The notes under the pieces were generated by a model that saw only the letters and a program-made list of their open reading frames with translations, had not been told where the DNA came from and searched no databases. A program made the position numbers and the translations under genes. From a plasmid: a stretch of 64,000 nt of DNA. Within the stretch, counting starts at the first letter, position 1. Every line of letters starts with the position of its first letter. Below are positions 1-11,560 of the stretch, in pieces. The stretch lies in the NCBI RefSeq assembly GCF_054482525.1, contig NZ_JBTHVG010000004.1; one strand, 5' to 3'.

Positions 1-1
1 A

Positions 2-655
2 GAGCGCACGCTGGCAGTCCAGGCGGCACTCATGCAGCAGCCGGACAAATCTCTGGCACTGCTGGCATGGACGCTCTGCCTGAATGTGTTTGGCAGCGGG
101 GCGTACAGTAAACCAGCACAAATCAGCCTGGAATGTGAACATTACTCGCTGACCAGCGATGCGCCATCGGGGAAGGAAGGTGCCGCATTCATGGCGCTGA
201 TGGCAGAAAAAGCCCGTCTTGCTGCCCTGTTACCGGAGGGATGGTCACGGGACATGACGACATTCCTGTCACTCAGTCAGGAGGTGCTGTTATCCCTGCT
301 CAGCTTCTGCACTGCGTGCAGCATCCACGGTGTTCAGACCCGTGAGTATGGTCACACGTCACGCAGTCCGCTGGACTCGCTGGAAACCGCTATCGGCTTT
401 CACATGCGCGACTGGTGGCAGCCGACAAAAGCAAACTTCTTCGGACACCTGAAAAAGCCGCAGATTATCGCAGCCCTGAATGAGGCAGGACTGTCCGGTG
501 CCGCACGGGACGCGGAGAAGATGAAGAAAGGCGATGCCGCTGAACATGCAGAGTTCCATATGAAAGACAACCGCTGGGTGCCTGGCTGGATGTGTTCACC
601 ACGTCCACAGACGGATGCCACTGAACGCGCCGATAACCTGGCTGATGCCGCCTGA
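2..655 (+). CDS. 3' part of a leading-region protein (ParB-like family suspected); 5' end lies outside the window
   Basis: Reading frame is open from the window edge and in frame with ORF 32..655; sits immediately upstream of psiB. Family assignment is from memory of leading-region gene order only. Confidence 0.45.
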   Translation, partial: ERTLAVQAALMQQPDKSLALLAWTLCLNVFGSGAYSKPAQISLECEHYSLTSDAPSGKEGAAFMALMAEKARLAALLPEGWSRDMTTFLSLSQEVLLSLLSFCTACSIHGVQTREYGHTSRSPLDSLETAIGFHMRDWWQPTKANFFGHLKKPQIIAALNEAGLSGAARDAEKMKKGDAAEHAEFHMKDNRWVPGWMCSPRPQTDATERADNLADAA

Positions 656-706
656 TGAACAACCACACCGCCCCGCCGGAGACGGGGCGGCAGAGGGAGA
701 AATACG

Positions 707-1144
707 ATGATGAATACCGAACTGACACTGAATGCCCTGCAGTCCATGAATGCCCAGGAATATGAAGAAATCCGTGCTGCGGGAAGCGATATGCGCCGTA
801 ATCTCACTCACGAGGTGATGCGTGAAGTGGACGCACCAGCTAACTGGATGATGAACGGAGAGTATGGCAGCGAGTTCGGGGGCTTTTTCCCCGTCCAGGT
901 TCGTTTCACGCCAGCCCACGAACGTTTCCACCTGGCATTATGTTCGCCGGGAGACGTCTCTCAGCTCTGGATGCTGGTTCTGGTGAATGGTGGTGGACAG
1001 CCTTTCGCCGTCGTTCAGGTGCAACATATCTTCACGCCTGTCGCGATCAGTCACACGCTGGCGCTTGCCGCGACACTGGATGCGCAGGGATACAGTGTTA
1101 ACGACATCATCCATATCCTGATGGCAGAAGGAGGTCAGGCATGA
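707..1144 (+). CDS. psiB: PsiB, plasmid SOS-inhibition protein B
   Basis: 145 aa product with near full-length similarity to PsiB of F/IncI plasmids (TELTLNxLQxMNAQEYE...HILMAEGGQ); followed by psiA with a 4 bp overlap. Confidence 0.93.
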
Positions 1145-1860
1145 GCGCACGTTCACGGGCACTGATCCCCCTCAGCGCAGAACAACAGGCCGCCATGCAG
1201 GCGGTGGCTGTCACAGAACAACGTCGTCGTCAGGGACGCACACTTTCAGCATGGCCTTATGCCACCGCTTTCTTTCGCTGCCTGAATGGCAGTCGCCGGA
1301 TTTCGCTGACCGATCTCCGCTTTTTTGCCCCTGCGCTGACGAAGGAGGAATTTCATGGCAACCGTCTCCTGTGGCTGGCTGCCGTGGATAAACTGATTGA
1401 AAGTTTTGGGGAAGTCTGTGTTCTTCCCCTGCCATCCGATGCGGGGCACCGTCTGTTCCCGTCCGTGCCTTTTCGTGAAGGTGAGCGTCGTCGTCAGAAA
1501 ACCACGCTGACAGAGCAGAAATACAGCCGCCAGCGGGAACGTGAGGCAGAACGACGGGAACTGGAATACCAGACATGTTTTGCTCAGGCGCAGATTGACC
1601 TTGCGTTTCATACTCCCGCCACGGTCGGAAGCTGGTTGTCCCGCTGGTCTGGTGTTGTTGAGGAGCATGATCTGGAAACGATTTTCTGGGGGTGGTGCGG
1701 GCGTTTTCCGTCACTGTCATCATTTGACCGGTTTTTCTGGCAGGAGGAACCACTCTGGCGGCTGATTTTTGAAGCCGGTGAGGCCGGTCGTGGTGCACCG
1801 ATACAGGTACGTGCACTTGAGCAGTGGATGATCCCGAACAAGCTGGAGAACGTAATATGA
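1141..1860 (+). CDS. psiA: PsiA, plasmid SOS-inhibition protein A
   Basis: 239 aa ORF overlapping the psiB stop (ATGA); size and position match PsiA. Confidence 0.85.
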
Positions 1861-2453
1861 TGAAATCAGACGAAAAATACCAGGTTCCCGCGTGGATGCG
1901 ACCTCTGTTGCCGTTGCTCTGCAACACCGGGGGGAACGATCCGGAAGAACTGCTGAATGATACAGAAACCACTGCCAGTGCGAATGTTGTCCGTTATGTA
2001 CTGATAGTTGCTGTGCGGTCGCAGGTTGATCTGCTGCAGCTTCTGTACAGGAAAGGGCTGTTGCGCACAGAGATACCAGGTGGCTTTTCACCGGAAGAAG
2101 CGCAGGCACTCCTGGATAATCTGGTGCGCAGCCATATCAGCAAGGCGCTGTCGGGCGAGCGAATGGCAGCCCGTGACAGAAATGCCGATCTGGCCTGGAT
2201 TAGACAGCAACTGGTCGATGCCGCCTGGTTTGTCCGTGCCACACTGGAAGCGCATGGGATGAGCGTCGGAAATGAGAGTCCCCCTGCTCCGCCGGAGACA
2301 ATGCCGGACATACAGACACGGGAACTGGTGATGTTGATCAAGCGACTGGCATCATCGCTGAAAGCGGTGAAACCGGACAGTTGTGTGGTGCGTGAAGCGC
2401 AGGACTGGCTGCGCGACAGAAAACTTGTGGATATCACAGATATTCTCCGGTGA
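1857..2453 (+). CDS. leading-region hypothetical protein (about 198 aa)
   Basis: ATG at 1857 overlaps the psiA stop; the listed 1824 start lies inside psiA. No recognisable domain. Confidence 0.55.
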   Translation: MMKSDEKYQVPAWMRPLLPLLCNTGGNDPEELLNDTETTASANVVRYVLIVAVRSQVDLLQLLYRKGLLRTEIPGGFSPEEAQALLDNLVRSHISKALSGERMAARDRNADLAWIRQQLVDAAWFVRATLEAHGMSVGNESPPAPPETMPDIQTRELVMLIKRLASSLKAVKPDSCVVREAQDWLRDRKLVDITDILR

Positions 2454-2914
2454 ACCAGGCATGTATATTTTACGCAGGGACATGCCGGTCATGATCGTTT
2501 CGTTCCAGGGGTGGTCTGGAGATCATGCGGTGTGCTCCCTGCTCTCGCCGGAATAAGGACGTCGCCGCCGGCTCCGCTTTTACCCGGCCATGCGGGGCAT
2601 GGCCTTGTGGGTTTTCAGTTATGTGGCCTCAGCGTCGTGTGCGGGCTGTGCCGTGCCTCCATCGTAGCCGGGCTTCTGCGGGCGGGTTGCAAGGTAAGGT
2701 GAACCGCTGCGGTCACCCGGTCCCTCCTTCCCGTCCGCCGTGATTTTCCGGTCGTTCACCCGCTCAGATTTCGCGGTCTCACCCTCCAACTCCCGCCAGC
2801 CGTGTGCGTCAGGCTGCGGCTTCCCTTGCGCCCTTGCAACCCTGCAGGCCCGGCAAAGATGGAGGCACGGCACCGCCCGGTGTCGCAGAACATGTGACTA
2901 TGGAGGATTCGGGA

Positions 2915-3415
2915 ATGTCTGTTGTTGCACCTGCTGTATACGTTGGAACCTGGCACAAATACAACTGTGGAAGCATCGCCGGACGCTGGTTTGACCTGAC
3001 CACGTTTGATGATGAGCGCGACTTTTTCGCCGCCTGCCGTGCTCTTCACCAGGATGAAGCCGATCCTGAACTGATGTTTCAGGATTATGAGGGATTCCCG
3101 GGGAATATGGCCTCTGAATGCCATATCAACTGGGCCTGGGTTGAAGGCTTCCGCCAGGCACGGGATGAAGGCTGCGAAGAGGCTTATCGTCTCTGGGTGG
3201 AGGATACCGGTGAGACGGATTTTGACACCTTCCGCGATGCCTGGTGGGGCGAGGCTGACAGTGAGGAGGCTTTTGCGGTTGAGTTCGCCAGTGATACCGG
3301 CCTGCTGGCTGACGTGCCGGAGACGGTGGCGCTCTATTTTGACTATGAGGCGTATGCGCGGGATTTATTCCTGGACTCCTTCACCTTTATTGACGGTCAT
3401 GTGTTCCGTCGGTGA
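2915..3415 (+). CDS. ardA: ArdA antirestriction protein (type I restriction inhibitor, DNA mimic)
   Basis: 166 aa from the internal ATG at 2915 (MSVVAPAVYVGTWHKYNCGSIAGRWFDLTTFDDERDFF...), matching ArdA length and acidic composition; the longer 2804 start runs into a GC-rich leader. Confidence 0.9.
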   Translation: MSVVAPAVYVGTWHKYNCGSIAGRWFDLTTFDDERDFFAACRALHQDEADPELMFQDYEGFPGNMASECHINWAWVEGFRQARDEGCEEAYRLWVEDTGETDFDTFRDAWWGEADSEEAFAVEFASDTGLLADVPETVALYFDYEAYARDLFLDSFTFIDGHVFRR

Positions 3416-3770
3416 TTTACTCCCCCGCTCCGGCGGGGGTATGGCCTGCCAGGCCGCCGGAAAACCCTGGCAGGCTTACGCCTGCCTGAAATGCAGGAGG
3501 GCCGCGCCTGCGGCGCTGCCCTTCCTGCCCGTCATGGTGTGAGGCATTTTTCTGTTATGTCGTTTCTGTTGTTCTGATTTCCGGAGGCGGGGACACCTTC
3601 GGCTCCCGGCTGCCTGGCGGCATCCGGTCGTCAGGCCCGACTCCGACAGGCAGCTGCTGGCGCACCCGCCAGTCTCCGCCGAACCCGCTGGCGCGGTTTC
3701 GGGCTGCCGCTACGGTCCGATGTCTGAAAAACCAGGCTTGCAGCGACCGTTCCGGTCGCGCCGCCCCTGT

Positions 3771-4120
3771 CGCGCCGGAAACGGCGCTCCCTGCACACCT
3801 GACGGTGTGTAAGGCCACTGCGCCTGATGGCGCAGTCAACCCTTCCGCCGCCACCCCTGCGGCCTGTTTCCCGCTGTGGACTTTCCGGGGGCTGGAGTAA
3901 CCACATCCCGTTTCAGCAGTCCAGGGGAAGATATACCGTCCACAAAATTTTTAGCCATAAACCCGGCAAAAAATTTTGCGTCCGCCCCCGGACAGCTGCC
4001 CCGTGACGTGGTGACGGACGCCCCATCGGAAAGGTCCACTGCGGGGAGAAACCCCGAAGAAGTGGACGGCAGAAGGGGCTTTCGCCCCTCCGGGGAGCAA
4101 CCGGTCGGCCCGGCGACCTG
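3771..4120 (+). promoter_or_regulatory. Frpo/ssi-like structured repeat, copy 1 (putative single-strand promoter)
   Basis: About 350 bp non-coding block repeated at 6637..6990 with internal palindromes (CACACC-TGACG-GGTGTG; CTGCGCC-TGAT-GGCGCAG); ends about 20 bp before ORF 4144. Confidence 0.55.
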
Positions 4121-4143
4121 ATTCAGCAGAAGGAGACGTTTTC

Positions 4144-4578
4144 ATGACTGTCAGCAGCACGATTTCCGTTTTTTGCCGCGACGGGGTGTTCCGTACCGTT
4201 TACTGCCACCTGCACGGTGAGCCGACCTGGAACGGTCGCATCCTGCATACCCACTATGCCACCGGTCAGCAGGCCGAAGCCCTGGTTGAACACGGTGATA
4301 TCCGTTGCCTCGGTCCCCGTTGCGACAAACCCGCCGGGCATACGCTTCAGAACCCGGTGGACGGTGTGACGGCTTATTACGGACGTGACAGTGGTTTCCG
4401 GATGGACAGTGAGGCGCGTGAGTACCGTTCTTTCAGGGAGGCTATTGCCACTGAAAGCACTGAAGAGGTGCGCTTCCATTATGTGTTCATCGACGGCTAC
4501 TGGAAGGTGATGTACCGCACGCCGGAAGGCTGGAAGATGAAAGCGCTCGCGCTGGCACTGCGTCGCTGTCCGAAATGA
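4144..4578 (+). CDS. leading-region hypothetical protein (144 aa) downstream of ssi-like repeat
   Basis: Clean ORF with GGAG-type RBS (agaaggagacgttttcATG); no recognisable domain. Confidence 0.6.
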   Translation: MTVSSTISVFCRDGVFRTVYCHLHGEPTWNGRILHTHYATGQQAEALVEHGDIRCLGPRCDKPAGHTLQNPVDGVTAYYGRDSGFRMDSEAREYRSFREAIATESTEEVRFHYVFIDGYWKVMYRTPEGWKMKALALALRRCPK

Positions 4579-4670
4579 AAAAAGGCAGGGCGATAAACCC
4601 TGCCTCTCTCCGCCGGCGCTTCCCCGCCAGGAAGTCCGGCATCTCAATCACTATCTATGGAGATTATGCC

Positions 4671-4937
4671 ATGAGACCATCAATTATCTTCGCAACCGCC
4701 GAGTATGTAAAGCGTCTGCGTGAAGAGTGCCTGCGGGAGAATAAACCCCTGCACCGCCATACCCGCTTCAGACGTCAGGAGCTGGCACAGGATGAGATTA
4801 ACCCGGACGTCCTGGCGATGAGCGGCCATATCGCCAGACGCTGCAGTGAGCAGAAGCGGGTGCGTATCCCCGCTATGAAAGTCAGCGAATGGGGCCACCT
4901 GCTCCGCGCGCTTGAAATTGAGCGGGTCTGCCACTGA
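4671..4937 (+). CDS. hypothetical small protein (about 88 aa)
   Basis: ATG at 4671 preceded by ctatggagattatgcc; the listed 4575 start overlaps the previous gene end. Confidence 0.4.
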   Translation: MRPSIIFATAEYVKRLREECLRENKPLHRHTRFRRQELAQDEINPDVLAMSGHIARRCSEQKRVRIPAMKVSEWGHLLRALEIERVCH

Positions 4938-5001
4938 TTAACCCTTGCCGTCTGCCTGTGCAGGCGGCAGGATACGTTCAGACATCTCACCAGGAGGAAC
5001 C

Positions 5002-5892
5002 GTGAGTAAGAAGAAAACCACCACGACGCCCACGCCGCATGATGCCGCGTTCCGGTCGTTCCTGGCGAATCCCGACGTCGCCAGAGATTTTCTGGAACTG
5101 CATCTTCCGGCGGAGTACCGGCAGTTGTGCGACCTGTCCACGCTGAAGCTGGAACCCGCCACCTTTGTTGAGCCGGACCTGCATCAGTACGCCAGCGATA
5201 TCCTCTGGAGTGTGAAAACCACCGGGGGTGAAGACGGCTATGTTTATACGCTCATCGAGCACCAGAGCACCGAAAATCTGTACATGCCTTTCCGCATGTT
5301 ACGTTACAGTGTGGCGGCGATGCAGAGACATCTGGAGCAGCACAAAACGTTGCCACTGGTGATTCCTGTGCTGTTCTATCATGGTGAGCGCAGCCCGTAC
5401 CCGTACAGCATGAACTGGCTGGACTGTTTTGAGAATCCGGCACTTGCGGCTAAAATATACACAAAGCCGTTTCCGCTGGTTGATATCACTGTCGTTGATG
5501 ACAATGAAATCATGAACCATCGCCGGATGGCCGCACTGACGCTGCTGATGAAGCATATCCGCCATCGTGACATGATGGATCTGCTGGACAAACTCCCGCA
5601 GGTCATGGTGGAAATTTCAGACGAGCAGGTGCGTGTTCTGATTCATTACATCGTTAACGCAGGGGACTCTGTATCACCGGAATTTATGCGGGCGCTGGCT
5701 GAGCGTCTGCCGCAGCATGAGGATAAACTGATGACTATCGCAGAACGTCTTGAGCAAAAAGGTCGCCAGGAAGGAGCGCTTGAAAAAGCCCTGGCTATTG
5801 CGTGCCAGCTTCAGAAAATGGGGATGACGCCGGAGCAGATTAAGCAGGCTACCGGACTTTCCGAAGCTGAACTGAAAAAAATCATTCACTGA
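5002..5892 (+). CDS. Rpn-family (YhgA-like) PD-(D/E)XK recombination-promoting nuclease
   Basis: GTG start at 5002 with strong RBS (caggaggaac cGTG); product VSKKKTTTTPTPHDAAFRSFLANPDVARDFLELHLP... resembles E. coli Rpn proteins across the nuclease core and C-terminal domain. Confidence 0.75.
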   Translation: MSKKKTTTTPTPHDAAFRSFLANPDVARDFLELHLPAEYRQLCDLSTLKLEPATFVEPDLHQYASDILWSVKTTGGEDGYVYTLIEHQSTENLYMPFRMLRYSVAAMQRHLEQHKTLPLVIPVLFYHGERSPYPYSMNWLDCFENPALAAKIYTKPFPLVDITVVDDNEIMNHRRMAALTLLMKHIRHRDMMDLLDKLPQVMVEISDEQVRVLIHYIVNAGDSVSPEFMRALAERLPQHEDKLMTIAERLEQKGRQEGALEKALAIACQLQKMGMTPEQIKQATGLSEAELKKIIH

Positions 5893-5902
5893 TGAGAGCA
5901 TC

Positions 5903-5930
5903 ACAGCCCGGCAAAATGCCGGGCTTTTTT
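5903..5930 (+). terminator. rho-independent terminator after the Rpn gene
   Basis: cagcccggcaaaatgccgggc followed by a T-run. Confidence 0.6.
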
Positions 5931-5954
5931 GTCAGCAGGAGCAGAGAAAACAGT

Positions 5955-6149
5955 ATGACGCTTGCAGAACGTCTTATACAGAAAGGTTTCGACGAAGGTT
6001 TTAAAGAAGGTTTTAAGAAAGGTGCGCTTGAAGTGGCGCGGGAAGCAGCCTGCCGGCTGCGGGATATGGGCTGGACGCCGGAACGGATTCAGGAGGCGAC
6101 CGGACTTTCCGGTGAAGAACTGAAAAAGCTGTTTCCTGATGAGCAGTAG
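5955..6149 (+). CDS. stand-alone Rpn C-terminal-domain paralog (about 64 aa)
   Basis: MTLAERLIQKGFDEGFKEG...MGWTPERIQEATGLSGEELKKLF aligns with the last about 55 aa of the upstream Rpn (MTIAERLEQKGRQEGALEK...MGMTPEQIKQATGLSEAELKKII). Confidence 0.6.
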   Translation: MTLAERLIQKGFDEGFKEGFKKGALEVAREAACRLRDMGWTPERIQEATGLSGEELKKLFPDEQ

Positions 6150-6179
6150 CCTGACATTCTGCCAGGCTGTGAATCACGC

Positions 6180-6431
6180 TCACACATTCCCTGCCGTTTC
6201 CCCCAGTTCATTTTCCAGACGCCTGATGATATCTGCCTTGCGCATCCCCTGCATGTGAGGCAGCAGGTCACGGACTGAAAGTGCCTGGGTGGTCCTCCAG
6301 ACGGTGACGTCCACCTGTTCCGCATTTTCCCAGGCGTGCCATGTTCTCTGCGTCACGCCAAATTCTCTGGCCGCTTTTTCGCGTGACCATAGCATGCTTT
6401 TTCGCCAGATTCGCAGTTCCCAGCCGGTCAT
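6180..6431 (-). CDS. small helix-turn-helix DNA-binding protein (83 aa)
   Basis: REKAAREFGVTQRTWHAWENAE resembles an XRE/Cro-type HTH; palindromic sites lie in its upstream region. Confidence 0.5.
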   Translation of the reverse strand: MTGWELRIWRKSMLWSREKAAREFGVTQRTWHAWENAEQVDVTVWRTTQALSVRDLLPHMQGMRKADIIRRLENELGETAGNV

Positions 6432-6447
6432 AAAACACCTTTGAAAA

Positions 6448-6535
6448 AGTGAAAAAACTTCACTTTATTTTATCATCACAATTGCCAAATCAGCGCGATA
6501 AATAAGTGTAAAAAAGTGAAGAAATTTCACTTTTT
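6448..6535. promoter_or_regulatory. pair of 15 bp palindromes (GTGAAAAAACTTCAC and GTGAAGAAATTTCAC), putative operators
   Basis: Two near-identical inverted-repeat sites about 65 bp apart, immediately upstream of the minus-strand HTH gene. Confidence 0.35.
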
Positions 6536-6636
6536 TTGTTTGTAAGTGTCGTGCGGTTTTCTCTGTTTTCACCTGTGCGGGAGTGGTGTGCCAGTGACCA
6601 CCACATGCCATTGTTGTGCCGTCGTTTTTCTTCAGT

Positions 6637-6990
6637 CGCGCCGGATGCGGCGCTCCCTGCACACCTTACGGTGTGTAAGGCCACTGCGCCTGATGGCGCA
6701 GCTGTCTCTTGCCTGTCTGCCGCCGCACTGCGGCCTGTTCTCCGCAGACGGACTTTCCGGGGGTACATACACGACCACATCCCGTTTCAGTCGTCCAGGG
6801 GAGAGATGTACCAGCCACAAAACTTTTTGCCGCTGGCGTCAAAAACTTTTGCGTCTGCCCCCGGACAACTGCCCCGTGACGTGGTGAGCGTCCCCCGTCG
6901 GAAAGGTCCACTGCGGGGAAATACCCTAAGACCCGGACGGCAGAAGGAGCTTCGCTCCTCCGGGAAATGACCTGGCTGACCCGGCAGTCG
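6637..6990 (+). promoter_or_regulatory. Frpo/ssi-like structured repeat, copy 2
   Basis: Homologous to 3771..4120 over its whole length with scattered substitutions; ends about 20 bp before ORF 7012. Confidence 0.55.
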
Positions 6991-7011
6991 TGACGATGAG
7001 GAGACAATGTG

Positions 7012-7860
7012 ATGAATCAGACTTTACCCACTGCTGACCTGAATACTGCCGGCACGACAGATGTTATTCCGTCTGTGGCTATCGACCGCATCATCGCGCA
7101 GCGTAACGAAGGTATTGCACTATTCATGCAGGCGATGGAATGCCTGGCGACAGCGCGCAGGATTCTGCTCGATGCGTCAGGTGATATTTTTCTTTACGGG
7201 TTTGAAGACTGCGTGACTGATTCCGTTCGTCGCATGGATAAGCCGGAAGAAGCGAAAAGGAATATCACCCGTCTTGCCGACCGGAAAATCTGGGACCGCC
7301 TGATGACAGATACGGGCATGTACACCTTCATGAGTTCATGCCAGCGTGATGAGTGGAACAGCCAGCTGATGAGCGACACCTGTCCTGAAATCACCCTGGA
7401 CAATGTACTGGCAACATTCCGCCATCTTAATACCAGCAAGATGCAGACGTTTGAACAGGGACTGATTGATGTCTACCGGAAATTGTCATGGGATTACAGA
7501 ACCAATAATCCCTGCCGTCTGGGCAAGAAAATCATTATTGAAAACATGCTGTACCGCTGGAGTAACGGGCGTGTGACGCTGGACTGCAGCGGACGGGAGG
7601 CACTGGATGACCTGGTACGTCCTTTTTATCTGCTGGAGGGGCGAAACGTTCCTGACTTCCGGAGCAGCATCGGGGCGCAGTATGGTGAATTTCTCGGGAA
7701 CGGCGACAACGTCGGTAAGCTGTTAGAAGGGGAATATTTTACGGTGCGTGGCTACCAGAAAGGGACCGTACACATTGTCTTTAAGCGTCCTGACCTTGTT
7801 GAAAAACTGAATGATATTATTGCACGGCATTATCCTGGTGCATTGCCGCCACGAGTCTGA
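7012..7860 (+). CDS. leading-region hypothetical protein (about 282 aa) downstream of ssi-like repeat
   Basis: ATG at 7012 after GAGGAG RBS; long clean ORF; no domain assigned with confidence. Confidence 0.6.
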   Translation: MNQTLPTADLNTAGTTDVIPSVAIDRIIAQRNEGIALFMQAMECLATARRILLDASGDIFLYGFEDCVTDSVRRMDKPEEAKRNITRLADRKIWDRLMTDTGMYTFMSSCQRDEWNSQLMSDTCPEITLDNVLATFRHLNTSKMQTFEQGLIDVYRKLSWDYRTNNPCRLGKKIIIENMLYRWSNGRVTLDCSGREALDDLVRPFYLLEGRNVPDFRSSIGAQYGEFLGNGDNVGKLLEGEYFTVRGYQKGTVHIVFKRPDLVEKLNDIIARHYPGALPPRV

Positions 7861-7867
7861 TTAAACA

Positions 7868-7905
7868 GAAAAGCCCTGGTATTTATGCCGGGGCTTTTTT
7901 TTCTG
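7868..7905 (+). terminator. rho-independent terminator
   Basis: agccctggtatttatgccggggc followed by a T-run of 8. Confidence 0.6.
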
Positions 7906-7945
7906 TAATCATCATAATCTCAGAACACGATGTGACATTGTCACA

Positions 7946-8287
7946 TCAATTGTTGTTCATATCGATGCCATCTTTCCTGCCTGAATCTGTCTTTTTAGGT
8001 GCTGTTTTAGAGGAAGAACGGCGGGATGGTTTTTTCGATTCTGCTTCCCGAATAATGTCACGAAGTGCCTTCTCTCCTACTTCATACCCTGCATTTTTAA
8101 GCGTGTCACGAACATCTGCCAGTGTATAACCCTTTGTCCTTACCAGGACAATGATGTCATCACGAATGGCATCAAGAAAATCACGCAATGTTTTCCGTTG
8201 AGCGGTGAGGTCCGGCAATTCCGATAAGGCAGCTTTTGCCAGCTGGATGTCATCATCTGAGTAAAATTTTTTAGAAGCCATTGGCAC
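7946..8287 (-). CDS. hypothetical protein (113 aa) with basic Ser/Lys-rich C-terminus, adjacent to oriT
   Basis: Clean ORF; tail SKKPSRRSSSKTAPKKTDSGRK suggests nucleic-acid binding; no family assigned. Confidence 0.5.
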   Translation of the reverse strand: MPMASKKFYSDDDIQLAKAALSELPDLTAQRKTLRDFLDAIRDDIIVLVRTKGYTLADVRDTLKNAGYEVGEKALRDIIREAESKKPSRRSSSKTAPKKTDSGRKDGIDMNNN

Positions 8288-8289
8288 TT

Positions 8290-8514
8290 TCTCTCCGTTT
8301 CATGTTGAAGTCTGATTTTATCATCAAAAACTGACTCCTGGCAGGGCTGCGCCCTGCTTCTGCCGTCTGCATAAGACTATGATGCACAAAAATAACAGGC
8401 TATAATGGCCTGAAAAACGGGACAGGATGTGCAATTGTAATACCGTCACACGCGACGCTATTACAATTGCCATCTGGTCAGGGCTTCGCCCCGACACCCC
8501 GTAAGGAGCCTGAA
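8290..8514. other. oriT region (IncI1-type) with NikA-binding inverted repeat
   Basis: Intergenic region upstream of nikA containing the imperfect inverted repeat GCAATTGTAATA...TATTACAATTGC (about 8430..8470) and the palindrome CAGGGCTGCGCCCTG (about 8340). Confidence 0.65.
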
Positions 8515-8847
8515 GTGAGTGATAGTGCGGTAAGAAAGAAAAGTGAGGTACGGCAAAAGACAGTTGTCAGGACACTCAGATTCTCTCCTGTTGAGGATGA
8601 AACCATCAGGAAAAAAGCTGAAGATTCCGGACTTACTGTATCTGCTTACATCCGAAATGCAGCACTGAATAAGCGAATTAACTCCCGTACAGATGATGCT
8701 TTTCTGAAGGAGTTAATGAGACTGGGAAGGATGCAGAAGCATCTGTTTGTTCAGGGAAAAAGAACCGGTGACAAGGAATACGCAGAAGTGCTTGTTGCCA
8801 TAACCGAACTTACAAATACATTGCGTAAACAGTTAATGGAAGGTTGA
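8515..8847 (+). CDS. nikA: NikA relaxosome accessory protein (ribbon-helix-helix)
   Basis: 110 aa from a GTG start after AGGAG RBS (VSDSAVRKKSEVRQKTVVRTLRFSPVEDETIRKKAED...), matching R64 NikA; the upstream part of the listed ORF is oriT. Confidence 0.85.
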   Translation: MSDSAVRKKSEVRQKTVVRTLRFSPVEDETIRKKAEDSGLTVSAYIRNAALNKRINSRTDDAFLKELMRLGRMQKHLFVQGKRTGDKEYAEVLVAITELTNTLRKQLMEG

Positions 8848-8857
8848 GGATTCTCCG

Positions 8858-11560
8858 GTGAATGCAGTCATTCCGAAAAAGAGAAGGGACGGCAAGTCTT
8901 CGTTCGAAGACCTGGTATCCTACGTCTCTGTCCGGGATGACATGACCGATGAGGAACTGGATTTATCTTCTTCTTCGCAGGCTGAACAACCGCACCGAAG
9001 CCGTTTCAGTCGCCTTGTTGATTATGCGACACGTCTTCGAAATGAGTCATTCGTGGCGCTGGTTGATGTCATGAAGGACGGCTGCGAATGGGTCAACTTT
9101 TATGGTGTCACCTGCTTTCATAACTGTACTTCTCTTGAAACTGCCGCTGCAGATATGGAGTACATTGCCCGGCAGGCACACTATGCAAAAGATGACACTG
9201 ATCCTGTTTTTCACTACATCCTTTCCTGGCAGTCACATGAAAGCCCGCGTCCGGAACAGATTTATGACAGTGTACGTCATACGCTGAAATCACTCGGCCT
9301 TGCCGACCATCAGTATGTCTCTGCCGTGCATACTGATACAGATAATCTGCACGTCCATGTGGCTGTTAACCGGGTACACCCTGAAACGGGTTATCTGAAC
9401 CGGTTATCATGGAGTCAGGAAAAACTCAGTCGTGCCTGCCGTGAGCTTGAACTGAAGCATGGTTTTGCTCCGGATAACGGTTGCTGGGTCCATGCGCCGG
9501 GAAATCGTATCGTTCGCAAAACTGCCGTTGAACGTGATCGCCAGAACGCTTGGACACGCGGAAAAAAACAAACTTTTCGCGAGTATGTTGCGCAGACAGC
9601 GGTCGCTGGTTTACGCAGTGAACCTGTACATGACTGGTTATCCCTGCATCGTCGTCTTGCTGAAGATGGTTTGTACCTGTCTCAGATGGACGGAAAATTT
9701 CTGGTGATGGATGGCTGGGATCGCAACAGGGAAGGTGTACAGCTTGACTCGTTTGGTCCCTCCTGGTGTGCAGAAAAACTCATGAAAAAAATGGGTGACT
9801 ACACGCCAGTGCCAAAAGACATTTTCAGCCAGGTGGAAGCACCAGGACGCTATAATCCGGACTTCATTGCAGCTGATGTTCGCCCGGAAAAAATCGCTGA
9901 AACAGAAAGTCTGCAGCAGTATGCCTGTCGTCATCTTGGAGAACGTCTGCCGGAAATGGCACGGGAAGGACGGCTGGAAAACTGCCAGGCTATTCACCGC
10001 ACACTGGCTGAAGCGGGATTATGGATGCGTGTTCAGCATGGTCACCTGGTTATCTGTGACGGTTATGATCATAACCAGACTCCCGTTCGTGCTGACAGCG
10101 TATGGTCACTGCTGACGCTCGACAATGTGAATCAACTCGATGGTGGCTGGCAGCCTGTACCAACAGATATTTTCCGCCAGGTTACGCCAACAGAACGCTT
10201 CCGTGGTCGTCGTATGGAGAGCTGTCCTGCGACCGATAAAGAATGGCACCGTATGCGTACAGGTACGGGGCCGCAGGGGGCTATCAAACGCGAACTGTTT
10301 TCTGACAAAGAAAGTCTGTGGGGATACAGCATCAGCCATTGTAGCCCTCAGATTGAAGAAATGATCACACAGGGTGAGTTTACCTGGCAGCGTTGTCATG
10401 AGTTGTTTGCACAACAGGGACTGATGCTACAGAAACAACATCACGGGCTTGTTGTCGTTGATGCCTTTAATCATGAGCAAACGCCGGTGAAGGCCAGCAG
10501 CATTCATCCTGATCTGACTCTGGGGCGTGCAGAGCCACAGGCCGGACCTTTTGTGAGTGCCCCAGCAGATTTGTTTGACAGGGTGCAACCTGAAAGTCGC
10601 TATAACCCGGAGCTGGCTGTCAGTGACAGGTACGGGGTCAGCAGTAAACGTGACCCAATGCTGCGCCGGCAGCGACGTGAAGCCAGAGCTGAGGCCCGTG
10701 CTGACCTGCGTGCCCGCTATCTGGCATGGCGTGAACAATGGCGTAAACCAGATCTGCGTTATGGGGAACGTTGTCGGGAAATTCATCAGGCATGCCGTCT
10801 GCGGAAGTCACACATTCGTGCGCAGTACGATGATCCGGCATTACGTAAGCTGCATTATCACATTGCAGAAGTTCAGCGAATGCAGGCATTGATCAGGCTG
10901 AAAGAAGACATCAGGGATGAGCGGCAGAAACTTATTGCTGACGGGAAGTGGTATCCACCCTCTTACCGTCAGTGGGTCGAAATTCAGGCTGCTCAGGGAG
11001 ACAGGGCTGCTGTATCGCAGCTGAGAGGCTGGGATTATCGCGATCGCCGTAAAGATAAGTCACGCACAACGACAACAGACCGCTGTGTCGTGCTTTGTGA
11101 ACCGGGCGGAACGCCGGTATACGGTAATACCGGTGATCTCGAGGCCCGTTTGCAGAAGAACGGGAGTGTTCGTTTCCGTGACCGTCGGACGGGAGAGTTT
11201 GTCTGTACGGATTATGGTGACAGGGTTGTTTTCCGTAATCACCATGACCGCAATGCGCTGGCAGATAAACTGGATTTGATTGCACCGGTATTATTCGGGC
11301 GTGATCCACGCATGGGTTTTGAACCAGAAGGAAACGACAAACAATTTAACCAGGTCTTTGCTGAAATGGTTGCCTGGCATAATGTGACAGGCCGTACCGG
11401 TCACGAAGACTACAGGATTACGCGACCGGACGTGGATCATCACCGTGAAGGAAGTGAACGCTACTACCGCGATTATATCGCGGCGAACAGCAACGATGAC
11501 GCATCACTGCCTCCGCCGGAGCAGGATAAACTCTGGGAACCGCCTTCTCCGATGAGATGA
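8858..11560 (+). CDS. nikB: NikB relaxase (MOBP-type)
   Basis: 900 aa ORF after nikA; contains the histidine motif HVHVAVNRVHPETG; size matches R64 NikB. Confidence 0.9.
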   Translation: MNAVIPKKRRDGKSSFEDLVSYVSVRDDMTDEELDLSSSSQAEQPHRSRFSRLVDYATRLRNESFVALVDVMKDGCEWVNFYGVTCFHNCTSLETAAADMEYIARQAHYAKDDTDPVFHYILSWQSHESPRPEQIYDSVRHTLKSLGLADHQYVSAVHTDTDNLHVHVAVNRVHPETGYLNRLSWSQEKLSRACRELELKHGFAPDNGCWVHAPGNRIVRKTAVERDRQNAWTRGKKQTFREYVAQTAVAGLRSEPVHDWLSLHRRLAEDGLYLSQMDGKFLVMDGWDRNREGVQLDSFGPSWCAEKLMKKMGDYTPVPKDIFSQVEAPGRYNPDFIAADVRPEKIAETESLQQYACRHLGERLPEMAREGRLENCQAIHRTLAEAGLWMRVQHGHLVICDGYDHNQTPVRADSVWSLLTLDNVNQLDGGWQPVPTDIFRQVTPTERFRGRRMESCPATDKEWHRMRTGTGPQGAIKRELFSDKESLWGYSISHCSPQIEEMITQGEFTWQRCHELFAQQGLMLQKQHHGLVVVDAFNHEQTPVKASSIHPDLTLGRAEPQAGPFVSAPADLFDRVQPESRYNPELAVSDRYGVSSKRDPMLRRQRREARAEARADLRARYLAWREQWRKPDLRYGERCREIHQACRLRKSHIRAQYDDPALRKLHYHIAEVQRMQALIRLKEDIRDERQKLIADGKWYPPSYRQWVEIQAAQGDRAAVSQLRGWDYRDRRKDKSRTTTTDRCVVLCEPGGTPVYGNTGDLEARLQKNGSVRFRDRRTGEFVCTDYGDRVVFRNHHDRNALADKLDLIAPVLFGRDPRMGFEPEGNDKQFNQVFAEMVAWHNVTGRTGHEDYRITRPDVDHHREGSERYYRDYIAANSNDDASLPPPEQDKLWEPPSPMR

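Follow-up and report, generated by a model that had tools for sequence, protein, structure and literature searches.

Promoters that work on single-stranded plasmid DNA have been described in several conjugative plasmids. In the class 1 elements, known as Frpo or ssi (Masai & Arai 1997), a long stem-loop rebuilds a -35 and a -10 box, and the promoter is active only as single-stranded DNA. Wen et al. (NAR 2025, PMC12672017) found that six leading-region operons of pESBL are strongly induced in early transconjugants, and that transcription starts determined by 5' RACE agree with hairpin promoters predicted in silico. These authors distinguished three classes of hairpin promoter, consisting of ssi1-3/Frpo (class 1), the ardA and klcA promoters (class 2) and the M.EcoGIX promoter (class 3); the ardA and klcA promoters were alike in sequence and structure, and classes 2 and 3 were conserved in F. 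In a preprint from January 2026 (10.64898/2026.01.09.698686) the F element was named ssp2 and reported to control the expression of yfgB (ArdB-like). Synthesis of the complementary strand came to a halt where the ssp2 stem ends, with or without transcription, and this stall was resolved by UvrD. Deletion of ssp2 led to less PsiB output and to less transfer into recipients that were non-isogenic or carried restriction-modification systems. The same preprint reports that class 1 transcripts can prime complementary-strand synthesis, a process that ssp2 blocks, and that class 3 is without roadblock activity.

Here we analyzed a stretch of 64,000 nucleotides of plasmid DNA (contig NZ_JBTHVG010000004.1 of assembly GCF_054482525.1), hereafter the window, which comprises the leading region and the backbone of a conjugative plasmid of the IncI-gamma/K1 type. 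Our results indicate that the region at 2454-2914 very probably serves ardA as a single-stranded-DNA promoter of class 2 (ssp2 family). Since this promoter type, and the ortholog at the same locus of an IncI1 plasmid, were published in December 2025, the finding as such is already known. What our analysis adds is minor, and concerns a stem variant, design rules that hold across the family, signs of concerted evolution between two copies, and the homology between classes 2 and 3.

The region is a 461-bp gap between an unnamed ORF adjacent to psiA and the first codon of ardA (Table 1). Its GC content is 63.1%, rising to 65.4% in the core at 2555-2907, as compared with 49.1% for the whole window and 55-57% for the flanking leading-region genes. 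The closest complete plasmid, p15648-2 (NZ_CP009052), is 99.8% identical over the gap, and its record holds no annotation within the matching stretch. Further small genes follow ardA, and the whole leading-region gene set lies on the plus strand. The presence of a NikA-like gene and a MOBP relaxase gene to the right of ardA places oriT on that side and makes the minus strand the transferred one. This strand is the template for all leading-region genes, including psiB, psiA and ardA.

Table 1. Positions of the gap upstream of ardA, its predicted elements and the neighboring genes, in window coordinates.
Feature	Position	Strand	Basis or remark
ParB-like gene	ends 655	+	
psiB	707-1144	+	
psiA	1141-1860	+	
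Unnamed ORF	ends 2453	+	
Left spacer	2454-2554	.	specific to the ardA context of IncI-type plasmids; imperfect hairpin at ~2474-2542
Conserved class 2 ssDNA-promoter module (assigned by homology)	2555-2907	-	common to ardA- and klcA-upstream copies of IncI, IncK and IncF
Small GC hairpin GGCCATGC-GGG-GCATGGCC, then TTGTGGGTTTTCAG	2591-2609, tail to 2625	+	terminator scan
Long stem-loop, ~246 nt	2638-2883	-	DNA fold, profile match, family covariation
Distal arm	2642-2673	-	non-template role; from just upstream of -10 through the predicted start
-10, TACGAT	2661-2666	-	distal arm; read from sequence
-35, TTGCAA	2687-2692	-	distal arm; sequence and centroid fold
Proximal arm	2848-2879	-	template strand of the rebuilt promoter
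Predicted ardA leader, ~48 nt	2867-2914	+	Shine-Dalgarno GGAGGA at 2898-2903; ATG at 2915
ardA	2915-3415	+	Pfam ArdA PF07275, E 2.3e-29; ArdA in p15648-2 and pESBL annotation
NikA-like accessory gene	8467-8847		right of ardA
MOBP relaxase	8858-11560		right of ardA

A preliminary description of this DNA had characterized the gap as about 460 bp of GC-rich sequence with short ORFs only. The ends of the gap and its composition bear this out, as does a Pfam search with the translations of six short ORFs from 2454-2914, which returned no match. These ORFs overlap and span 57-84 aa. It could be argued that one of them (e.g. 2525-2743 on the plus strand or 2619-2873 on the minus strand) encodes a small protein, given that stop-free frames are present and that a few plasmid records label the homologous stretch “hypothetical protein”. 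However, the stop-free frames are not kept in the homologous copies of pESBL, F and other IncF plasmids; among these copies, which are 88-97% identical, both the frames and their open lengths vary. The indels are not multiples of three, conservation tracks base-pairing and not codons, and long open frames are to be expected at 65% GC. A coding function for the gap is therefore extremely unlikely.

When the core of 353 nt (2555-2907) was compared with plasmid sequences by BLAST, it was recovered from at least 5000 records from Escherichia, Klebsiella, Salmonella and Shigella, often with two to four copies per plasmid among the matches listed. The IncF copies align to positions 102-454 of the query at 88-97% identity. 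On IncF plasmids the core lies upstream of a KlcA/ArdB-type anti-restriction gene and reaches 97% identity, one such klcA-upstream copy being 96.9% identical to the window core. The two plasmids with experimental data both carry it. The gap upstream of ardA in pESBL (NC_018659) is 89.5% identical over the full 461 nt, and the core is 88.3% identical both to the klcA-upstream gap of pESBL and, over 353 nt, to the yffB-yfgB gap of F (NC_002483) that holds ssp2. The left spacer aligns with the region upstream of ardA in pESBL and not with the klcA-upstream copies. Within this spacer lies a second imperfect hairpin of about 70 nt (2474-2542), in which the pESBL substitutions are not compensatory.

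The closest described relative is thus the class 2 promoter of ardA in pESBL, which shares with the window element the locus, the 461-bp gap, the landmarks of the hairpin, the leader and the Shine-Dalgarno sequence, although its host is an IncI1 plasmid and that of the window element is IncI-gamma/K1. F ssp2 resembles the window element in driving an anti-restriction gene. Its hairpin is 98.5% identical to the klcA-upstream copies of other IncF plasmids. The gene downstream of ssp2 (yfgB) is, however, of the ArdB/KlcA type (PF03230) and not an ArdA gene (PF07275), and the leader differs too. Three candidates from an insect metagenome (Frpo' 4, Frpo* 1 and Frpo* 3; Samuel et al., Nature 2024, Supplementary Table 2), which were proposed from sequence and fold only, can be clearly aligned to the window element and are members of its family; Erwinia dacicola contigs (L080, L081) contain the same sequences. 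In its homology, its leading-region site in front of an early gene, its fold and the orientation of its -35 and -10 boxes, the window element agrees with class 2. On the strength of this homology, we assign it an ssp2-family function with high confidence; its activity, start site and single-strand specificity would be those carried over from the homologs.

The core of the fold is an inverted repeat of 32 nt (2642-2673 and 2848-2879), the arms of which are 91% complementary and lie 174 nt apart. With DNA parameters, the minus strand of 2630-2890 folds at -74.8 kcal/mol against a shuffle mean of -55.6 kcal/mol (z -5.1; 0 of 200 shuffles as stable). For the whole interval 2454-2914 the minus strand gives a z-score of -4.8 and the plus strand one of -5.9, each score being based on 100-200 shuffles of which none was as stable as the real sequence. 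The fold of the region far exceeds chance. Secondary-structure prediction of the minus strand, which the preliminary description had recommended, thus yields a stable large stem-loop (z about -5) in a region whose reading frames are not conserved. A profile of the family, built as described below, has a single match in the 64-kb window, at 2640-2881 (E 2.3e-46). Read from 5' to 3', the minus strand presents the complement of ardA, the proximal arm (2879-2848), the inner stem and loop, the distal arm (2673-2642) and the small hairpin. In the folded form the 5' end of the distal arm is at the loop and its 3' end at the base, and this arm hence plays the part of the non-template strand.

The stem rebuilds -35 and -10 boxes that point at ardA, which begins 32 nt past the base of the hairpin. 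The -35 box pairs with a self-complementary TTGCAA at 2834-2839. In the -10 box, T(-12) forms a T.T mismatch and C(-10) a C.T mismatch. Both hexamers match the consensus at 4 of 6 positions, and the spacer between them, measured on the distal arm, is an atypical 20 nt. For such a geometry to yield RNA in the sense of ardA, the strand that folds must be the minus strand. The predicted start of ardA, inferred from promoter geometry, would lie at about A2867, in a CA context 7 nt past the -10 box.

A conventional double-stranded promoter was considered as well and rejected: a sigma-70 scan of both strands of the duplex from 2300 to 3100, allowing a spacing of 16-18 nt, gave no site. As a duplex, the plus strand reads TTGCAA (2834-2839), 15 nt, AAAGAT (2855-2860) in the region of the proximal arm, and the minus strand reads TTGCAA, 20 nt, TACGAT. 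Neither strand of the duplex offers a workable sigma-70 promoter, which fits the single-strand-only activity reported for this type of promoter.

To define the family, one genome per species was scanned with a degenerate pattern of the distal arm. True members were found in Escherichia, Klebsiella, Salmonella, Yersinia pestis, Enterobacter, Lelliottia, Kosakonia, Cedecea, Siccibacter, Buttiauxella, Rahnella, Pantoea, Erwinia, Mixta and others. Pattern matches in the GC-rich DNA of Streptomyces, Verrucomicrobiota and Bacteroidota were without a partner arm; these were regarded as chance and dropped. Near-identical enterobacterial leading-region DNA was also encountered in contigs labeled Streptomyces morookaense (L008, L009) and in metagenome-assembled genomes of Oscillibacter, Oscillospiraceae and Collinsella (L011, L013, L026, L054). 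The occurrence of such DNA in assemblies with Gram-positive labels is most likely due to contamination or mis-binning.

Thirty-nine representatives from at least three length or sequence subfamilies were aligned, those derived from the scan being at most 96% identical to one another, and RNAalifold recovered the long hairpin from this alignment. Standard pairs occupy 96.9% of the 1208 pair cells, compared with 34-44% when the partners are slid by one to three columns, and compensatory double changes occur at 10 pairs. The covariation score was 0.225 against 0.090 after shuffling (0 of 500), but the shuffle statistics overstate independence, since 12 of the 31 consensus pairs, all invariant, are fixed by the search pattern, and since the sequences of the family are related. 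In the consensus structure the segment opposite the -10 box is unpaired, and A(-11) is mismatched in 37 of the 39 members. The -10 box is partly unpaired in every subfamily save for one Erwinia copy. This copy, from Erwinia sp. OLFS4 (L051:2342-2593), is the only clear exception we encountered; its arms are fully complementary through the -10 box, and the pattern matches both of its strands.

The motifs GCCCGGC-TAnnnT-nnnGGCACGGC and CCCTTGnnn are kept across the family. A search of the retrieved DNA with a profile HMM (nhmmer) returned 26 further copies that fell outside the search pattern. Among these pattern-independent copies, 24 have a distal arm, and TTGnnn and TAnnnT stand at unchanged spacing in all but one of the 24. 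The first ORF begins some 20-35 nt past the hairpin throughout the family, the distance from the hairpin base being nearly constant at ~30 nt. The downstream genes encode ArdA, KlcA/ArdB (PF03230), an N6/N4 DNA methylase, DUF1281-like proteins and a few unknowns.

These data also bear on the reading, put forward in the preliminary description, that the gap is a long non-coding leader of ardA. According to this explanation the ardA transcript would begin far upstream, and the 460 nt would fold in the mRNA as a structured 5' UTR controlling translation or stability. A transcript reading through from the psiB-psiA operon would include the region, and the plus strand also folds as DNA (z -5.9), as any long inverted repeat will fold on both strands. 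However, when folded with DNA parameters, all 39 of the 39 family members show a template strand of greater stability than the complementary one, by 8.35 kcal/mol on average, although in the window copy by only 1.7 kcal/mol. The template strands of the family contain 39 G.T pairs, mostly in one column, against 3 A.C, and in an mRNA these 39 G.T pairs would become A.C mismatches. This asymmetry favors a DNA structure on the transferred strand over an mRNA structure. Moreover, the conserved geometry of TTGnnn and TAnnnT indicates a start within the proximal arm, which agrees with the mapped starts of the homologs (PMC12672017). A scan of positions 1-9000 against Rfam 15 (E at most 1) returned nothing in 2454-2914, its three weak matches being chance matches elsewhere. 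A terminator-like hairpin also stands before the big stem. Consequently, we consider a structured 5' UTR very unlikely, and what had been taken as a long leader is replaced by a predicted one of about 48 nt.

The terminator-like hairpin is itself part of the conserved module and lies, in the sense of the mRNA, upstream of the big stem. In a copy from an insect metagenome its letters have changed and its pairing is retained (GGCCCG...CGGGCC). It may terminate the psiB-psiA operon and thereby insulate ardA, which would then depend on its own promoter. Together with the behavior of F ssp2, at the stem end of which strand conversion stalls independently of transcription until UvrD resolves it (10.64898/2026.01.09.698686), its conservation could suggest that the module is mainly a structural roadblock or insulator. 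In that case the large hairpin would delay complementary-strand synthesis, the small one would end the upstream operon, or both, and ardA would be transcribed from elsewhere. Against this stand the findings that F ssp2 is also the promoter of yfgB and that the ardA copy of pESBL has a mapped start. A roadblock is therefore better regarded as an added function and not as an alternative to a promoter; that it should be the main role of the window element, in place of a promoter, is highly improbable. The roadblock and its dependence on UvrD are known for the F copy only, and any roadblock at ardA would be a prediction from that copy.

The preliminary description had also noted that the gap occupies a position equivalent to that of two ssi-like repeats in the window without being homologous to them. 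Both observations hold, as the gap lies directly before a leading-region gene on the transferred strand. With reference sequences from Supplementary Table 2 of Samuel et al. 2024, the two repeats were identified as Frpo2/ssi2 (3767-4092, 99.7% identity) and Frpo1/ssi1 (6633-6962, 98.5%) of ColIb-P9, on the minus strand. Together with the ardA element, this makes three single-strand promoters, belonging to two classes, in 4.5 kb of the window. Class 1 elements (Masai & Arai 1997; ssi1-3 of ColIb-P9, Frpo1/2 of F) resemble the window element in being stem-loops of the transferred strand with -35 and -10 boxes in a leading region, and this common position and general design might speak for a diverged class 1 copy, i.e. 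a third ssi homolog. However, a self-comparison of 2454-2914 with the window by blastn at word size 7 gave only the region's own inverted repeat and no link to ssi. Frpo1-3 of ColIb and ssiD of F matched the window only at 3767-4092 and 6633-6962, and the class 2 family profile likewise gave no link between 2454-2914 and the ssi/Frpo repeats. The hexamers and the architecture of the stem differ as well, and Wen et al. (PMC12672017) treat the two as separate classes. The chance that the window element is a diverged ssi copy is negligible. The suggestion of a third, diverged single-strand promoter thus stands as regards the promoter, in the light of the pESBL ardA ortholog and the F ssp2 homolog, and fails as regards descent from ssi. 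The shared long-hairpin design shows that the window element works like an Frpo and is not a member of the Frpo family.

Two other features were observed in this part of the window. A direct repeat of 72-75% identity (5731-5879 and 5955-6127) reveals that a small ORF (5892-6149) begins with a second copy of the C-terminal ~50 aa of the Rpn-family ORF before it (4945-5892). An AT-rich inverted repeat of 26 nt (6444-6469 and 6510-6535, 85%), which is at the same time a direct repeat of AAAAAGTGAA...TTCACTTT, adjoins a divergent HTH regulator gene on the minus strand (6180-6431); the repeat at 6444-6535 may be an operator or promoter region.

Whereas class 1 is unrelated in sequence, class 3 is not. 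The class 3 element (ssp3) lies upstream of the operon for DUF1281 and a methylase (M.EcoGIX) in pESBL and F, and is absent from the window. The class 2 profile matches it (pESBL, L004:3277-3437; F, L096:2662-2822; also L002:86-246) with an E-value of 8.6e-15, at about 65% identity over some 158 positions. Both classes have the landmarks GCCGTG...CCGGGCG...AAGCCGCAGCGCG...GACCGGGTGAG...CTTGCAT-N8-GCCCGGT-TAACGT-GCCGGCACGGC in common, although the class 3 hairpin is shorter (~160 nt) and weaker (z -2.8) than that of class 2. Judging from these similarities, the hairpin in front of the M.EcoGIX operon, apparently the published class 3, looks like a short-loop relative of class 2 and not an unrelated element.

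Within class 2 the stem exists in variants that differ in the block from -35 to -10. In the window element (variant A: TTGCAA, TACGAT) the distal arm has a spacer of 20 nt and the proximal arm one of 15 nt; the same variant is found in the klcA-upstream copy of the same plasmid type (L097:5700-6063) and in many IncF copies. By contrast, 15 nt on the distal and 19 nt on the proximal arm are found in F ssp2, in both copies of pESBL and in almost every other member of the family. In the ardA promoter of pESBL, for example, TTGCAT, 15 nt and TAAGAT on the distal arm face 19 nt on the proximal arm, so that the block has been replaced on both arms relative to the window. Since the longer spacer is on the distal arm in one and on the proximal arm in the other, the surplus bases bulge from opposite strands in the window and in pESBL. 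Moreover, A(-11) is paired in the window copy, whereas it is unpaired in the ardA promoter of pESBL and in F ssp2. The activity of the window's stem variant is thus a prediction.

Copies on one plasmid share the stem variant, both in the plasmid type of the window and in pESBL, whereas orthologous copies on different plasmids differ. This sequence pattern points to concerted evolution of the two copies, about 7 kb apart, by gene conversion or cassette exchange. A joint reading of these observations, which we offer only tentatively and hold to be possible and not probable, would be as follows. Classes 2 and 3 would together be a single superfamily of hairpin promoters with members throughout Enterobacterales (Escherichia, Klebsiella, Yersinia, Pantoea, Erwinia, Buttiauxella, Rahnella and others), built to the rule that the -35 box is paired, that the effective spacer is set by an asymmetric bulge, and that A(-11) stays unpaired. 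Copies within a plasmid would be homogenized by gene conversion, and the window variant would be one in which the bulge has shifted to the non-template arm. In that event the plasmid would have a second roadblock dependent on UvrD in the ardA copy, 7 kb nearer to oriT than the klcA copy, and the final 5 kb of its leading region would stay single-stranded for longer.

For the ardA element itself we propose the following mechanism as a class 2 promoter. The strand transferred in conjugation would be the minus strand of the window, entering the recipient 5' first from oriT (on the right, near nikA at ~8467). Before complementary-strand synthesis, 2638-2883 of the entering strand would snap into the hairpin of ~246 nt, the stem of which would mimic a duplex promoter with the distal arm as the non-template strand (-35 TTGCAA, -10 TACGAT) and the proximal arm as the template. 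The mismatches in the -10 box, together with the bulge or internal loop between -35 and -10, would leave this promoter partly pre-opened. Host sigma-70 RNA polymerase would initiate at about A2867, the exact position being a prediction, and transcribe out of the hairpin into ardA. Transcription from the single strand would thus supply ArdA ahead of any action of type I restriction enzymes on the new duplex. Once the complementary strand has been synthesized, the hairpin would be lost and neither strand of the duplex would offer a usable promoter, and expression would be switched off. If the analogy with F ssp2 extends this far, the hairpin may in addition hold up complementary-strand synthesis until being unwound by UvrD. 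Homology, fold, covariation, strand bias and gene context are shown by the present analysis. Early induction, the mapping of the start site, the deletion phenotype and the roadblock come from the papers on its homologs and would apply here by analogy.

In practical terms, a blank gap of 460 bp can now be labeled as the probable single-strand promoter of ardA, with coordinates for its arms, its -35 and -10 boxes and its likely start. Elements of this type are far more widespread and more modular than the two tested examples, occurring in many genera and in front of several types of gene, and their natural stem variants provide material for studying how spacer bulges set the strength of promoter and roadblock. 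Single-strand promoters decide the expression of anti-restriction and anti-SOS genes during the first minutes in a new host, and are thus a control point for the spread of plasmids, including those that carry resistance.
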